IMG/VR virus record: IMGVR_UViG_2537561935_000012
Length of the DNA stretch: 64,000 nt
Source: a virus
Lineage: Duplodnaviria > Heunggongvirae > Uroviricota > Caudoviricetes
Reading direction: 5' to 3' (one strand)
Part shown: in pieces, positions 287 through 48,780 of the stretch
Numbering within the stretch: position 1 is the first letter of the stretch
How the letters are laid out: each line of letters begins with the position of its first letter
Made by a program: the position numbers and the translations under genes
The notes under the pieces: model-generated
Told to the model about the DNA's origin: nothing
The model's database searches: none
What the model saw: the letters and a program-made list of their open reading frames with translations, nothing else

Positions 287-1771
287 TTATTCATTAAGCC
301 ATGCCAGAGCTTCATCAACCTGCGCTTCGTCTTCGACGCTAAGCACTTCATCCTGGGGAACATAATCAGCCAGCATAGCGAAACAATATGTATCCCAATG
401 GTCTGGTGAGTGCAGGTTGAGTTTTTTCTTCATATCCTCCTTACTCATCACCTTCCATTGACCTGCGGAGTTAATCCCTACAGGGATTTTCGACGCTTCC
501 TCAATAGTTTCATTACCCTTATCCAGTCTCATACGACCAGATTTTACGGCCTCTGCGGCTTGAACGTTGGCATAAGCACGTTTATCAAAGTACAGGCTCT
601 TATCTTCACGGCTATGCATCTTTTTACCCCAGCGTATACGCTGTACGGTAATACCATAATACTCGTACATCAGATCCGCCGTTGCTTTACCCAGGCCATC
701 GCCGTCTATCGCTATGGTGATATTGGGGAATCGCTCAGGATTACATTCTGCGAAAATTTTGGCGGCAAGCTGCGTTTCTGTAACGTCTGTGTATTCCAGC
801 ATTCGATAGTTGATTACACGGCGTTTATTTCGCTGGCCGGACACCATCATGATATTGATAACGGACTTATCCCGTCCCGTACCACCAGCAACGTCCACAC
901 ATGCAAGCCAGCCCCATCCTTTTGCAATCTTGACTTTCCGCCGCGTTGCACGTTCAACCTCATCACGCCCAAGAAGGAAGCCATCCTGTGATTTAGGGAA
1001 TAGGCCGCGTACCTTAATCATGTACATAGGGTTATCACGCCCGCCGTACTCCGCCAGCTTCATTTTGATAAATGCTGGCGTTACCAACGGTGATTCCTCA
1101 CTGTTAAGCGTGATCGCCGTATAAACGCCATCAGGGTTACCAGGACGCTTGGCCAGTTTATGGTGTGTATCGTAGAAATAGCAGCTTGGGCGTGTAGGCT
1201 GTGACAGCAATAAGATGCGGTTATCCTGTCCGGTAAGAGCACCGGTGATGATACCGAAAGCTCTATCACTGACACCGGAGGCTTCATCGATAATATACAG
1301 AAGATGATCTGCGTGTTCACCGGCGAGAGCTTCTTCACTTCCCAGACGAAAGCCCTTCGGTACTACAGTCCATACACCTTTACCAGTAATCTCATAGAAA
1401 GCGGTTTCTGTCAGAACAAAATAATCAGCAAGCCATGGGAAACGGCTGGGGGCAGTAGCCCAGTTTATCTTGATGTACTTGAATATACCGGTCATTACCT
1501 GCTGAATTTTGTTCGCAACGATAATGGCACGGGCACCTGGATACATGATTATGAACAACATGATCATGATAGAAGTCATGTCTGATTTCCCGGTACCGTG
1601 ACCAGACGAAACAGATGTCTTGCTACCCTGTTCCTGCACAGACTCAATAATCAGATCCTGCTGCCAGGTAGGTGTTTTGCCGAACAAAACATCAGCGGCA
1701 GCAATCAAGTCATAACGATATAGCGCCACCAGCTCGCGCCAACGTGGATCCGTTACGCAACTTCTGGCCAT
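287..1771 (-). CDS. pacB: terminase large subunit (PacB)
   Basis: 494-aa ORF; Walker A-like GHGTGKS and DEAS; immediately follows pacA. Confidence 0.9.
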
Positions 1772-2964
1772 TAATCATCATCCCCGTATAGCTTGCGGGT
1801 AACTTCTTCGTCTTCCTCCTCGTCTTCGTCCAGGTCTTGTTCCAGCCATGGGTCGTTTGATACACCTTCAGTATCAACATCTCCATAACCGCCTGTATCA
1901 ACGATATCGGCGATTTCTTCCCTACGCTGCTCAATCCACAATGCGGCATCGGCGCGGCGGTTGGCGGCCCGTTCTCGCGCAACTTTGTCCAGATCTTCAA
2001 GAGAAGGGCCACCGACGGCTGTTTGCCTTTCCTCATCATCGGTATTGGTCTTAGGAGCACGCAGATCGGCTTTGATTTGCTCCAGCATCAGGGGCGGTAC
2101 TTTCCCTCCATGCGCCTCGATGAATTCAGCTGCCTCCAGCACTGACCAGTTGTTTTCACGCTTTCGTTCGTATGCCAGCTTAACAATGCCAGCTTGCCCC
2201 ATAGACAAAGCGTGCTTTTCCGCCTCCCGGCTTTCTTTTCGATAGTTATTCCGGATGCTGTAAATGGTGTTGATCAGGCTGCTTATCTGCGCGGAACAGC
2301 TGTTTAGCATGCTCGCGATACGGTATTCAGGCGGAGTTCCTTCATCATCGTCTTTTTGCTGATCGCGCATTTCCTGAACCAAGCGAATACACGTATCCCT
2401 GGCGTTCTCCAGCATAAGGAGATGAGAGAGAGACTTTTCCAGAAGAGTGGTTTCCAGAACATCAGCCCCGGACCGACGCAACATAGCGCGCGCGGCCTTC
2501 CGCGCTTCAACGTTATCTATCAGGTAATCGCCAGCTTCGAATTCAAAGCGTTCACCATCATCATCCAGGGTGTCGCGTTCCAGGCGATCACGTAAGGTCC
2601 GGTGGGCGCGGGTGATCACGTCATGATCATCAGAACGATCATTTATGCGCTTATTCTGGCGCTTCGCGTTCTCGACTGCGGCACTAACAACAGCATTAAC
2701 TCTTTGTTTTTCAGCCATTTCAGCCACAATGTGATCACCTGCACGTTGATCATTAGCGTGATCAATGATCATGCTTTTTAGTGGTTTTCTGACAGGCTTA
2801 TTTGGCTTACGGCTGTCCGCTGTTCCGGTGTCTTCTTTGAATGCACGGAGATAACGACGTGCGGTGTTTGGGTTGAGATTAAACTCGGCGGCATATTGTG
2901 CGATGGTGTAACCACCATCTCGCGCCAGGCGAGCAAAATTCTTCTTGTGATCGTCCCAGGTCAC
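1771..2964 (-). CDS. pacA: terminase small / pac-recognition subunit (PacA)
   Basis: 397-aa ORF, HTH-like N-terminus, acidic C-terminus; contains the pac hexamer arrays; 1-nt overlap with pacB. Confidence 0.85.
2585..2772 (-). promoter_or_regulatory. pac: pac packaging site: two clusters of TGATCA/CGATCA hexamers with GATC cores
   Basis: four hexamers at 2586-2641 and four at 2732-2771 flanking a ~90-bp spacer inside pacA. Confidence 0.75.
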
Positions 2965-3050
2965 TTATGCTTCCTTTCGTATAAAACTCTTTTTGACGCG
3001 AGGGTAACGAAAGTCACATGTCAAAAGGCCCGGAACGGGCAAGCAATCAA

Positions 3051-3503
3051 TCAGATACGTGCGGATGTGGCATTACCGTAATGACGGTGCTGACGGACCA
3101 CCTTATTGAAAAGTTGACGCGCCATCACCCAAGGCTGGTGCTCCCGGCGTTCCTTTTCGTCCTGCGTCATATAGAGTTCGTTCTGGAGTTTTTCATCAAA
3201 CCGGCGCGGAGCGCGGCTGCGGCGAAAGAATTCAGGATTCAGAGAGTGGATCTGAAATCTACGTGGGCGTGTACTGTCATCAATCAAAACAGACGAATAC
3301 TTAGACACAGCGATAGCCTTTAAGCGCAGATAAACATCGCGCTTATCGACATCCAGATGCGGGTATTCCTTTTCAAGAATTGCTGCAAGTTCTTTCGCTG
3401 ATAGAAGAGATTTAGTGCGGATCATGTAATCCGCAATCTCGTACGATGTTATTCGTGAGTGATTTATTTCCATGAAGTGGCGTCCCTGCCAGTTAAGTAA
3501 CAT
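3051..3503 (-). CDS. lpa: late promoter activator Lpa-like protein
   Basis: 150-aa ORF directly upstream of pacA, preceded by an operator-like site; assigned by synteny and size only. Confidence 0.5.
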   Translation of the reverse strand: MLLNWQGRHFMEINHSRITSYEIADYMIRTKSLLSAKELAAILEKEYPHLDVDKRDVYLRLKAIAVSKYSSVLIDDSTRPRRFQIHSLNPEFFRRSRAPRRFDEKLQNELYMTQDEKERREHQPWVMARQLFNKVVRQHRHYGNATSARI

Positions 3504-4846: not shown

Positions 4847-5227
4847 CTACTCCGCAGAACCATACAATCTACGTAACGTGTCGGCGACAGAAGATACAGA
4901 TATCTCGCCAGTCGCAGCGCCTACAGTAAGGTCTGCCAGTTCAGGTGAATCAAATACCTGCACCCCGTTACGGCGTAGAAATAGCAGCGCACTGTTTAGC
5001 GCGGTACGCTTATTGGCATCATTGAATATATGCCCTCTCGCTGTAGCCACCAGGTAGGTGGCGGAGACTTCGAAAAGGTCGGTGATCTCTTCGTAGGCAA
5101 CTCTGGCCTGAACTCTCCCGATAATGGCCTCTGCCCTACCCGGATCAGACATTCCCGGCAGGCCGCCGTAGCGGCTTATATTCGCATCATGAAGCGCAAT
5201 AAGTTCTTCCGGTGATATATGCCTCAT
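4847..5227 (-). CDS. doc: Doc toxin (Fic fold)
   Basis: 126 aa; Fic motif HIFNDANKR; start overlaps phd stop. Confidence 0.95.
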
Positions 5228-27058: not shown

Positions 27059-27134
27059 TGGTGGCCCCTACCGGACTTGAACCGGTGACCGTGCGATTAT
27101 GAGTCGCCAGCTCTAACCACTGAGCTAAAGGGCC
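27059..27134 (-). tRNA. tRNA-Ile2/Met-like, anticodon CAU
   Basis: 76-nt cloverleaf; loop CTCATAA; GGTTCAAGTCC T-arm; encoded CCA; close to E. coli ileX. Confidence 0.85.
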
Positions 27135-28565: not shown

Positions 28566-28641
28566 TGGTGCCGATTAACGGACTCGAACCGCTGACATCC
28601 TGCTTACAAGGCAGGCGCTCTACCAACTGAGCTAAACCGGC
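28566..28641 (-). tRNA. tRNA-Thr, anticodon UGU
   Basis: 76 nt; D-arm GCTCAGTTGGTAGAGC; loop CTTGTAA; encoded CCA. Confidence 0.85.
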
Positions 28642-28643
28642 AT

Positions 28644-28719
28644 TGGCGATGGTGGATGGATTTGAACCATCGACCCGTTGATTAACAGTCAACCGCTCTA
28701 ACCGCTGAGCTACACCATC
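28644..28719 (-). tRNA. tRNA-Asn, anticodon GUU
   Basis: 76 nt; loop CTGTTAA; T-arm GGTTCAAATCC; encoded CCA; 2 nt from tRNA-Thr. Confidence 0.85.
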
Positions 28720-44103: not shown

Positions 44104-44613
44104 ATGGGGCACAATAACACTAAGGGAAACCGTAAATTTATTAAGGGCCGCTATACTGCCAACGCGGCCAAAGGCGAACGACTGGTATCTTCTGAATTCC
44201 AGCTCACTTTTGCAGGCCATGAAGATATCAGCGTACTGGTTCGCACGTCGCAAATTCCTGAAATGACCCGCGAGGATGTGGAGGACTATGGTCCGAATGG
44301 TGTGAAGTTCAACCAGCACGGTCCAATTCGAAACTCTGGGGAAATCCAGGTCCAGTGCGTGGAGACTATCGAAGGCGATATTCTTCAGTTCATTAAAGAT
44401 CGCATTGCGGCGAAGGACTATGTTGATATCACGATGGCTGCTACCCCTGAATCCAAATCTTCCGGGGTTAACGCTGTGACAAAAGCTGCTACAACAATTG
44501 AAATGTTGGACTGCAAAATCTACAGTGATGCAATCGACTTTAGTACCGAAGATGTGACTGCCGCTGTGCGCCCGTCACTTCGTATCGTCTACAACTGGAT
44601 TGAGTGGGATTAA
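44104..44613 (+). CDS. phage structural protein, possibly tail tube
   Basis: 169-aa ORF followed by a terminator. Confidence 0.4.
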   Translation: MGHNNTKGNRKFIKGRYTANAAKGERLVSSEFQLTFAGHEDISVLVRTSQIPEMTREDVEDYGPNGVKFNQHGPIRNSGEIQVQCVETIEGDILQFIKDRIAAKDYVDITMAATPESKSSGVNAVTKAATTIEMLDCKIYSDAIDFSTEDVTAAVRPSLRIVYNWIEWD

Positions 44614-44633
44614 GAGTCATCCCTTGTATTTTA

Positions 44634-44660
44634 AAGCTCCTTCGGGAGCTTTTTTATTTG
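44634..44660 (+). terminator. rho-independent terminator
   Basis: aaagctccttcgggagcttt hairpin plus T-run. Confidence 0.65.
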
Positions 44661-44729
44661 GAGAGGAAAGGGTGCATTGAGGATACCTGACACACGAAGA
44701 GTGGCAGGGATCTCTCCCCGCCAGGTCTC

Positions 44730-44885
44730 TTACCTTTCAGATTCGTAGGCTGTGAAGACAGTGACCTCCGTCTGGCCGGTTCGGATTCGTACCTCGCAGA
44801 GGTCTTTCCTCGTTACCAGTGCCGTCACAATGACGGTTAAACAGATGACGATCAGAGCGATTAACATCGCTTTTTGCTGCTTCAT
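44730..44885 (-). CDS. hok: Hok/Gef-family type I toxin
   Basis: 51 aa, MKQQKAMLIALIVICLTVIVTALVTRKDLCEVRIRTGQTEVTVFTAYESER; matches Hok pattern ..TRK.LCE.R.R.G..EV..F.AYES; below track size cutoff. Confidence 0.7.
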   Translation of the reverse strand: MKQQKAMLIALIVICLTVIVTALVTRKDLCEVRIRTGQTEVTVFTAYESER

Positions 44886-44943
44886 AGCCTGCTTCTCCTT
44901 GACCTTTTGGTCGGTAAGAGGCTAATCTACGTATGCTAAGCAT
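44737..44943 (-). CDS. mok: Mok-like overlapping reading frame
   Basis: 68-aa ORF that starts upstream of and overlaps hok in another frame. Confidence 0.45.
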   Translation of the reverse strand: MLSIRRLASYRPKGQGEAGYEAAKSDVNRSDRHLFNRHCDGTGNEERPLRGTNPNRPDGGHCLHSLRI

Positions 44944-45066
44944 AGATATGGCCTCAGATTAATGTTAAGCGTCTTGCAGGACGCGTAATGTTATCTGGGG
45001 CTTTCTTCTATCTGCTTTTCGGGTAATGCCTGAAGCAGATAGCCTCAAGCACCCGCAACGATTGTA

Positions 45067-45312
45067 TCAATGTCTGGCTTTTTTTCTATAGAAATCACCT
45101 GGAAGGGTGAATATCCACATCAGAAGAAATGTTGCAGCAAACATGATCCCTAATGGCCAGACCGCGCCAAAGAAAATCCATACTAAGATCTCCTCTGCTT
45201 GTTCTTTGCGGTCGATATCGACAAGCATTTTTCGGCTGATCATGTATACACAGAAGCCAATACAAACATATCCTGCAAAAGCGATCGCTAACTGTAAAAA
45301 ATCAGATTGCAT
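45067..45312 (-). CDS. small membrane protein, about 81 aa
   Basis: two hydrophobic helices; start set at an internal Met downstream of repL. Confidence 0.4.
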   Translation of the reverse strand: MQSDFLQLAIAFAGYVCIGFCVYMISRKMLVDIDRKEQAEEILVWIFFGAVWPLGIMFAATFLLMWIFTLPGDFYRKKARH

Positions 45313-45362
45313 CTCCGACCTCAAACTGAAAACGCCAGGTGACTCCAGATTAGAGCAATCTA

Positions 45363-46208
45363 TCACCCTCTGAATCCTGCCGGTATACCCCATTGTTCGT
45401 TATCTTTATTTTTGGCTAAAACCGCATTAAGAGCTTCGTTTACCGTCATGCAATGCGGCAGATTATCGAAGTTTGATACCCCGCCAATATCAGGAGAACG
45501 CTTGTCCTTCAGGTAAGCATATTTCCGCGCTGCCGCCTCTACCTTCTGCTTGAACTCATGTTTTTGAGCGCGTTTTTTGGATAACCGCAGATTGTCAGCC
45601 TTTGCTTTTGCCTCAGCGATCCATGAAGTCAATTTTTTGAGTCTGGTCGTTCCGGCACCGCCGGAAACTGATCTTTTTGTTTTTTTAACTTGTGACTTCT
45701 TATTCTTTATTGCCACGTCATCCTGACAGGGGGAGGGGGTATCATTTTGACATGGGGGTGTGGATAAAAAATTAAATAAAGCCAATGTCTTAGCGAGAAC
45801 AGCTTTAACCTTGGTTGCCGCTGAAGAGATCTTTAATTTGCTTTCAATCAGCGCATTTTTGGCTTGTTGTGCGAAGGCCAAAAAGGATGGTGTAAACCGG
45901 TACAGGTTAGCGCGACGTTCACGGTGATCGCCGATAACAATCTCTACAGACAGGATTCCTTTGTTTACAGCTTCACGGAATGCACGAACGACGGTTGATT
46001 GGCTATAACCAGTTTCTGCCGCGATCAGGCGGTGAGGCTTGTGAATGAAGTATTCACTGGTTGTTGCCGCGAGATTTGCACATTGCGACAGGATATGCCC
46101 GGCGCTACGGGATAGACCGGAGTGTGTTACAAAGCAGGCCAATTCATAGCCAGAAAAAGTAAAATCGCTCATCGTTATACAGCTCAGGAAAGTGACTTTA
46201 GCCAGCAT
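45363..46208 (-). CDS. repL: lytic replication initiator RepL
   Basis: 281 aa directly downstream of kilA. Confidence 0.8.
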   Translation of the reverse strand: MLAKVTFLSCITMSDFTFSGYELACFVTHSGLSRSAGHILSQCANLAATTSEYFIHKPHRLIAAETGYSQSTVVRAFREAVNKGILSVEIVIGDHRERRANLYRFTPSFLAFAQQAKNALIESKLKISSAATKVKAVLAKTLALFNFLSTPPCQNDTPSPCQDDVAIKNKKSQVKKTKRSVSGGAGTTRLKKLTSWIAEAKAKADNLRLSKKRAQKHEFKQKVEAAARKYAYLKDKRSPDIGGVSNFDNLPHCMTVNEALNAVLAKNKDNEQWGIPAGFRG

Positions 46209-48479: not shown

Positions 48480-48640
48480 CGTAAGTTGATAAACAACCTG
48501 CGACCCGCTGCTAAACAGGTGGCAGGACGTGACGGGGTTAGCAGACTGGCACTTACGAAACCAGCAGGCCGAAGCCTCCCCATCACGCCCCACCATAATT
48601 CGGGCGTAACGTGGTTTACGGACACAAAAATACCGCAATA
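48480..48640 (-). ncRNA. c4: c4 antisense repressor RNA region (approximate)
   Basis: GC-rich hairpins between the operator and icd; boundaries not resolved. Confidence 0.3.
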
Positions 48641-48780
48641 TCGGAAATCTGCGGTTGTCCGCGTAAGTATTCAGGCTGCTAAACCCGGTCGCAGAATTTG
48701 CTACGACGGCGGAACTATAAGCCTGAACGATTAAAAGGTCAATATGATGCGAAAAGATAGCATTCGCGACTTAAAAATAC

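Follow-up and report, generated by a model that had tools for sequence, protein, structure and literature searches.

Does the short interval between repL and the structural-operon terminator of a P1-like phage-plasmid hold a genuine hok-type toxin gene together with its controlling RNAs, and if so, what would such a locus do for the element that carries it? The question was raised by an earlier note on the window (the whole 64,000-nt stretch of DNA analysed here), which had proposed a hok/mok-type type I toxin locus at this place from a 51-aa minus-strand ORF and a 68-aa ORF overlapping it in another frame. The window is recognisable as a P1-like element by kilA (Pfam KilA-N, ANT), repL, C4 RNA with its a1b1 targets, three tRNAs and bplB/pmgG. 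Our reading, to which we give a probability of roughly 0.85, is that the variable region between repL and bplB carries hok/mok/sok as an apparently intact type I toxin-antitoxin cassette, which belongs to the hokD/hokW (prophage) subfamily. The placement proposed in the earlier note holds, with repL upstream and the terminator that follows bplB downstream. The features are collected in Table 1, and all element positions were checked by exact string search.

Table 1 Features of the repL-bplB junction in the window, with the basis or context of each.
Feature	Position	Strand	Basis or remark
repL	45363..46208	-	upstream of ORF81 and hok
Replaced segment, 693 bp (ORF81 + hok/sok)	44656..45348	.	blastn breakpoints versus NC_005856
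ORF81, small hydrophobic protein	45067..45312	-	between repL and hok; in replaced segment
hok/mok/sok locus	45088-44633	-	profile, Rfam, fold and alignment evidence
Candidate hok promoter	45061..45088	-	-35 TAGAAA 45088-45083, 16-nt spacer, TG-extended -10 TACAAT 45066-45061
Putative full-length hok mRNA, ~422 nt	44633..45054	-	5' end from Rfam start and promoter; 3' end from hairpin
hok mRNA leader	44880..45054	-	Rfam RF01794 'sok' match
tac box	45043..45054	-	GGGTGCTTGAGG; 5' end of hok mRNA; corresponds to R1 tac
Candidate Sok RNA, ~71 nt	44935..45005	+	ends mapped from annotated sokW of 933W by alignment
Candidate Sok promoter	44899..44928	+	-35 TTGACC 44899-44904, 18-nt spacer, -10 TAATCT 44923-44928
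mok SD	44955-44952	-	GAGG; 9 nt upstream of mok AUG (44943-44941)
mok, 68 aa	44737..44943	-	ORF list; overlaps hok out of frame
hok SD	44900-44883	-	AGGAG inside AAGGAGAAGCAGGCTATG; precedes hok AUG at 44885
hok, 51 aa	44730..44885	-	MKQQKAMLIALIVICLTVIVTALVTRKDLCEVRIRTGQTEVTVFTAYESER; Pfam and PHROG matches
fbi box	44670..44682	-	CCTCAATGCACCC; downstream of hok stop; tac complement with one bulged base
Terminator hairpin	44633..44652	both	AAAGCTCC-TTCG-GGAGCTTT; common to convergent bplB operon (+) and, putatively, hok (-)
bplB	44104..44613	+	convergent with hok; terminator follows

For the toxin gene, profile searches bore out the assignment to the Hok family. The 51-aa ORF matched Pfam PF01848 HOK_GEF across profile positions 1-42 of 42 (E = 2.4e-22; 78.7 bits, with the cutoff at 22), as well as PHROG 251, 'MokW-like host killing', with E = 4.9e-32. 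Against the narrower NCBIfam Hok subfamily model NF007279 it scored 49.5 bits, below the cutoff of 73. At the protein level, Hok of the window is identical to HokW at 47 of 51 residues, to the Hok of the Rac-type locus also at 47 of 51, and to R1 Hok at 23 of 51. The overlapping frame likewise proved to be mok-like, as had been suggested: 62 of its 68 residues are identical to the annotated Mok of the Rac-type locus MN652886, and it matched PHROG 37205 with E = 8e-21. Since mok starts 58 nt upstream of the hok start, the two genes lie in different frames. Judging from the sequence, these frames and the two Shine-Dalgarno sequences are arranged as coupling of hok translation to mok would require.

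Upstream of the hok frame, a whole-window Rfam scan, which the earlier note had proposed as a check, matched RF01794 (sok) along model positions 1-157 of 157; the score of 114.9 bits, where the gathering score is 59 (E = 2e-25), is far above what chance would give. The same model scores 113.5 bits on 933W, 111.1 on the Rac locus and 87.2 on the R1-type locus. Because it runs in the hok sense and stops at the hok AUG, the match describes the hok leader containing the Sok target. A promoter scan yielded the candidate hok promoter, which has 9 of 12 consensus matches plus the TG; its -10 has TAGAAT as its aligned counterpart in the 933W and Rac loci and lies 7 nt upstream of the Rfam model start. 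The interval first proposed for the locus, 44634-45066, agrees very closely with the putative transcription unit, in which the -10 ends at 45061, transcription would start near 45054 and the terminator hairpin closes the unit. This hairpin was called by the terminator scan as a clear plus-strand terminator with a long T run, and it belongs to the conserved backbone, as P1 homology resumes at 44655. On the hok strand it is followed by just 3 U, so the hok 3' end is uncertain; we infer that hok uses the same hairpin, at which its transcript most likely ends.

The two boxes on which folding of the hok mRNA would depend are both present. The tac box is invariant across the window, 933W and Rac loci, and reads GGCGCTTGAGGC in the R1-type locus. 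Its best partner more than 300 nt downstream is the fbi box, with a pairing energy of -21.0 kcal/mol and a spacing of 371 nt; the corresponding spacing is 373 nt in 933W, 375 nt in Rac and 377 nt in the R1-type locus. Between the subfamilies tac and fbi covary, with GGGUGC/GCACCC in the hokD type versus GGCGC/GCGCC in the R1 type. In the minimum free energy (MFE) fold of 45054-44633 (-165.8 kcal/mol, z = -8.4 versus shuffles), nt 1-12 are paired with fbi, and the fold-back structure that a hok mRNA was expected to show is therefore found. When the last 50 nt were deleted, the predicted fold of nt 1-34, as an MFE prediction only, changed from long-range pairing to a local hairpin. The predicted rearrangement of the 5' end upon 3' trimming is of the kind that the R1 model requires.

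On the opposite strand, the candidate Sok RNA consists of a 15-nt single-stranded 5' tail, a hairpin at 44950-45002 and a U-rich tail. It folds with -33.2 kcal/mol (z = -5.05) and covers both the ATG and the SD of mok. By its sequence and predicted fold, we consider a Sok RNA to be present. The antisense gene also has a candidate promoter at the position homologous to those of the R1-type, Rac and 933W loci, where the corresponding elements read TTGCGC-17-TATCCT (R1-type) and TTGCCT-17-TAACCT (933W), and where the Rac sequence is identical to that of the window. A strict sigma-70 scan of the plus strand did not call this promoter, whose -10, TAATCT, agrees with the consensus at 3 of 6 positions; we kept it because of the positional homology and regard it as probable. 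For sokW, mutations introduced at and near the -10 element served to validate the promoter (PMC8621323).

Promoter, tac, mok, hok, fbi and Sok are thus all in place and in register, and the frames contain neither frameshifts nor premature stops. A chance ORF and a decayed relic were considered as well and were rejected, on account of the strong profile scores and the intactness of every element.

The closest system that has been studied by experiment is hokW-sokW of the Stx2 phage 933W and the Sakai prophage Sp5, which shares 87.6% nucleotide identity with the window locus over 388 nt. Its fbi differs from that of the window in one base, and its Sok hairpin and promoter position are as in the window. 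The two loci are both prophage-borne, although 933W is an integrated lambdoid prophage whereas the window element is a P1-like plasmid prophage. Through the loss of 1 nt, mok of 933W has become joined in frame to hok, so that the 70-aa MokW results, while mok of the window is out of frame, like that of R1. This difference in frame would fit the view that translation of mok matters rather than the sequence of its peptide. Over the initial 16 nt of the 5' tail of Sok, the window and 933W disagree at 6 positions, so cross-neutralisation between the two may be limited. Experiments established hokW-sokW as a toxin-antitoxin system of type I in which HokW halts growth, and sokW expressed from its own promoter prevents this arrest, an antitoxic effect that depends partly on RNase III and Hfq (PMC8621323).

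Outside the P1-like elements, the nearest relative at the DNA level is the Rac-type hok/mok locus (MN652886), with 91% nucleotide identity. Beyond fbi, the Rac-type locus is closed by a strong terminator of its own; the window locus instead continues into the terminator of bplB, which is part of the backbone. The comparison with plasmid hok/sok loci that the earlier note had called for held in part. The window has the same architecture as R1 hok/sok (parB): a promoter is followed by tac, by mok and hok in overlapping frames and by fbi, which lies some 375 nt away from tac, and the antisense Sok has a promoter of the form TTGnnn-N17/18-TAnnCT that overlaps the region of the hok SD; the subfamily, however, is the hokD/hokW prophage type and not the R1/F type. 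The R1-type reference record is a conjugative IncF-type plasmid, and R1 hok/sok is the paradigm of a plasmid-stabilising system. A further relative is E. coli hokD (relF), and PGAP gives the P1-like copies the name HokD. In work by Pedersen and Gerdes from 1999, K-12 hokD is said to lack the upstream mok/sok/tac region; the window locus has this region entire.

We then located the cassette relative to the P1 backbone. In blastn against canonical P1 (NC_005856), homology covers 46300-45349 and 44655-43500, with 98% identity for repL and 95% for bplB and its terminator. From these breakpoints, the 693 bp of the replaced segment stand for 1,826 bp of P1 that hold rlfA (DUF3800), rlfB and pmgF, and this rlfA-rlfB-pmgF block was not found by blastn between repL and bplB of the window. 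On the left, homology breaks off within Orlf, a C1 operator of P1; its first 11 nt, ATTGCTCTAAT, are left at 45359-45349. On the right, the break comes immediately outside the terminator of bplB. Canonical P1 has no hok at this junction, as had been suspected, and neither does P7, which likewise has rlfA-rlfB-pmgF there (rapA-rapB in P7). Other P1-like phages have yet other cargo there: RCS47 has a transposase of the IS605 family and an unknown gene, and SJ46 and 673R5 have different ORFs. The junction is a hotspot at which at least four alternative cargos are swapped. Among P1-like phage-plasmids, eight regions have been described as highly variable, and the rlfA-rlfB-pmgF block is one of them (region 5; PMC9603915). 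The suspicion that hok had been acquired is right insofar as canonical P1 is without it, but the cassette is not private to this element, being a widespread allele of a known variable region.

The breadth of this distribution became clear from database searches. The 501-bp locus is found in six phage records at 99% identity or more and full coverage, one of which (MH422554) labels the Hok ORF 'MokW'. In PLSDB, at least 229 plasmids contain 80% or more of the locus, with the toxin called HokD by PGAP; in all 30 plasmid matches listed, the locus identity is at least 99.6%, and the plasmids listed are mostly 85-105 kb in size. Among 5,426 complete E. coli genomes, at least 80% of the 861-bp repL-bplB junction is covered in 235, and a match at 100% identity occurs once, on a 93.9-kb plasmid. 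The cassette is thus common, ordinary and already annotated in hundreds of related plasmids. Several phage records give the locus only as 'hypothetical protein' or leave hok unannotated, and Sok RNA, tac, fbi and the promoters are annotated in none of the P1-like records inspected.

In the literature, hok at the P1-like variable region is noted in passing (PMC6906374; PMC9603915). A 10-mer published for the cassette is present a single time in the window, at 44708-44717, which places it in the 3' UTR of hok, past the stop codon and ahead of fbi; the published cassette is therefore very likely the same as that of the window. Our search for work on hok in P1-like elements, phage-plasmids, IncY and Punavirus retrieved no paper dissecting the locus. 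As no paper dissecting the RNA elements in P1-like elements came to light, the coordinates given here add annotation detail and not a new kind of system.

How the locus would act can be proposed from the R1 hok/sok paradigm established by Gerdes-lab work, together with the experiments on hokW-sokW. A constitutive promoter would give a stable hok mRNA of ~420 nt, which pairing of the 5' tac with the 3' fbi would keep shut to ribosomes and to Sok alike. Slow trimming from the 3' end would take off fbi and let the 5' end refold. In plasmid-bearing cells, the short-lived Sok RNA from the opposite strand would pair with the ribosome-binding region of mok; by blocking translation of mok, it would also block the coupled translation of hok, and the Sok-hok mRNA duplex would be marked for RNase III. 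Upon loss of the plasmid prophage or a halt in transcription, Sok would be expected to be the first to decay; mok and hok would then be translated, and the 51-aa Hok would kill the cell by depolarising its inner membrane.

Acting in this way, the locus would be a post-segregational killing module. The window also encodes Doc on its minus strand, near 5032, and hok/sok would therefore be the second addiction module beside phd-doc, in line with what the earlier note had supposed. P1 prophages are low-copy plasmids (PMC8546580), and a low-copy plasmid prophage is the kind of setting where addiction modules are thought to matter. Several points speak against this role. By consensus, the Sok -10 (3 of 6 positions) and the hok-strand terminator are both weak. 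Of the 5,426 complete E. coli genomes, 4,748 have loci of the hokD type, mostly on the chromosome; Sok RNAs from such loci could act in trans to neutralise Hok of the window and so weaken the killing that follows plasmid loss. The element can also dispense with hok, which 125 related plasmids have lost at this site. Against a role in maintenance, the nearest studied homolog has instead been tied to phage release (PMC8621323).

This last point leads to another role for the same locus, in which selection would have acted mainly in the lytic cycle and less on plasmid maintenance. Induction would lower Sok, Hok would accumulate in the inner membrane, and lysis would be faster and the phage yield higher. 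In Sp5, hokW-sokW doubles phage release after mitomycin C, and released phage are halved without it (PMC8621323); this is the locus that shares 87.6% of its nucleotides and 47 of 51 toxin residues with the window, and hokD-type loci are typical of prophages. The position also fits: kilA and repL, the genes of lytic replication, come directly upstream of the cassette, set off from it by no more than ORF81 and a weak hairpin at 45110-45095, and the 11-nt remnant of the C1 operator Orlf lies upstream. The Sp5 effect, however, is modest (about two-fold), P1 already has a complex set of holin, antiholin and endolysin (PMC9025707), and canonical P1, P7 and 125 hok-less plasmids manage without hok. 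We consider it unlikely that lysis or release is the main selected role.

The surroundings of the cassette are of some interest here: the C1-repressed kilA-repL operon and a partial C1 operator lie upstream, and the terminator is shared with the convergent late tail operon. On this positional reading, read-through from repL or antisense late transcripts escaping the terminator could upset the balance between hok and Sok upon induction. That Hok in a plasmid prophage would then serve, in addition to its addiction role, as a timed aid to lysis or release, or else as a commitment switch, is a speculative extension that we consider a long shot.

Defence against other phages is a further role that the cassette might have. 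A lytic phage that halts host transcription would stop the synthesis of Sok, and Hok would then kill the cell early and protect sibling lysogens. According to Pecota and Wood in 1996, R1 hok/sok reportedly reduces the growth of T4, although this effect was partial. Toxin-antitoxin modules are widely linked to phage defence (PMC8621323), and the variable regions of phage-plasmids often hold defence genes (PMC13221032). ORF, Pfam and PHROG searches, however, found no other defence genes flanking the locus, and abortive infection as the role of the cassette appears quite improbable. A contribution to lysis or to abortive infection is possible all the same, and neither would exclude the addiction role.

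That the locus is instead recently recombined and effectively inactive, hitch-hiking in the hotspot like the decayed chromosomal hok genes of K-12, is very hard to credit: such a passenger would suit a junction with at least four alternative cargos, the truncated hok loci at the same site and the weak consensus of the Sok -10 and the hok-strand terminator, but every known element is present, in register and without frameshifts or stops, Hok is identical at 47 of 51 residues to a toxin proven active (PMC8621323), and identity is at least 99.6% across all 30 plasmid matches listed.

The practical value of these results lies mainly in annotation. Since canonical P1 is without hok, annotation transferred from P1 misses the locus. 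Many P1-like phage-plasmids carry resistance genes (PMC9600943), and an RNA-controlled killer beside phd-doc may help to explain the stable carriage of such elements. With this locus one could also conveniently study whether hok/sok of prophages is there for maintenance, for lysis or for defence. To a specialist nothing here will be surprising, as this is a standard cassette in a known variable region.

Two further observations concern the neighbours of the cassette and the alleles that have replaced it. ORF81 matched PHROG 3772 (unknown function) with E = 7.9e-54 over residues 28-108 of the 108-aa ORF, and no match to Pfam or NCBIfam was found for it. Because the PHROG match begins at residue 28, its start is probably at 45312. 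The candidate hok promoter overlaps the 3' end of ORF81. The possibility that ORF81 forms part of the hok module was rejected, as it is also present in 673R5, which is without hok.

In 125 related plasmids, hok has been lost at the junction while the leader is kept, so hok is dispensable for the element. Sok is 86% identical in both SJ46 and RCS47, and the promoter/tac region is 60% identical in SJ46 and 94% in RCS47. In a reading that we consider a long shot as well, these hok-less alleles, which keep the Sok gene, could be 'anti-addiction' alleles by which one P1-like plasmid ousts a hok-positive competitor while the host survives. We make no claim of selection for an orphan Sok, as the pattern is mixed and mosaic recombination explains it equally well. 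The gene found in the place of hok in 673R5, SJ46 and RCS47 had no Pfam match; in SJ46, its copy carries the RefSeq label 'Lom outer membrane protein'.

At the junction between repL and bplB, where the window carries its hok/mok/sok cassette, we found that the hok coding region and fbi, the 3' box that pairs with tac, were absent from three P1-like phages, 673R5, RCS47 and SJ46. The hok leader was retained in all three, comprising the promoter, tac (the 5' box of the hok mRNA), the mok start and the entire stretch encoding the antisense RNA Sok with its hairpin, and a TTGCTC-18-TAATCT arrangement was still present upstream of the Sok stretch. Past window position 44920, these phages had a different sequence in common, with a gene of 171-210 aa on the opposite strand. 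Among PLSDB plasmids, the hok-less allele was found in 125, compared with 229 for intact hok. This allele may represent an orphan sok, or it may be a mere remnant; its conservation pattern was a mosaic, which fits both readings alike.

Downstream of hok, fbi is followed in the Rac-type hok/mok locus (MN652886) by a strong terminator belonging to that locus; the P1-like cassette instead appears to borrow the backbone terminator, the hairpin that follows bplB. For pSvP1, the target duplication of IS186B has been reported to be GGATCTCTCC (PMC6906374). This sequence was found once in the window, at 44708-44717 (+), within the GC-rich hairpin that forms part of the hok 3' UTR, with the stop codon on one side and fbi on the other. 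An insertion at this position would cut hok off from both fbi and the terminator. The reading frame of mok also differs among the loci: in 933W (516-728 of locus L006), the spacer between mok and hok has a 1-nt deletion that brings the annotated mokW into the frame of hokW, so that the product is a 70-aa Hok with an N-terminal extension, whereas the window and the Rac-type locus both have an out-of-frame mok.

The breakpoint relative to canonical P1 (45349) was located within the C1 operator Orlf (formerly Op55; window 45343-45359, minus strand), of which the initial 11 nt (ATTGCTCTAAT) were retained and the other 6 were changed compared with canonical P1. The only match of ORF81 was PHROG 3772, a family of unknown function (E = 7.9e-54), and, judging by its sequence, the protein probably has two membrane helices. 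Translation probably starts at Met28 of the listed 108-aa ORF, which is preceded by a GAGG..GGAG site. Since the promoter scan found no promoter specific to ORF81, this gene may be transcribed by read-through out of kilA-repL.

Coordinates of the hok-less leader alleles and of features in the window
Feature	Sequence	Coordinates	Strand	Remarks
Hok-less leader allele	673R5 (L003)	1744-1918		equivalent to window 45182-44920
Hok-less leader allele	RCS47 (L005)	2935-3108		as for 673R5
Hok-less leader allele	SJ46 (L004)	~2246-2498		as for 673R5
Hairpin after bplB	window	44633-44652		long T run on + strand only; UUUAAAA next on hok strand
ORF81	window	45067-45312	-	small hydrophobic protein, between repL and hok
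P1 immunity C4 antisense RNA and a1/b1 target	window	48515-48600, 48668-48720	-	Rfam, above gathering scores
Three tRNA genes	window	27062-27134, 28569-28641, 28647-28719	-	Rfam, above gathering scores

Elsewhere in the window, the C4 RNA, its a1/b1 target and the tRNA set are consistent with a P1-like element. In the closest phage record, MH422554 (locus L001), two successive KilA genes (104-898 and 1063-1863) are annotated upstream of repL.
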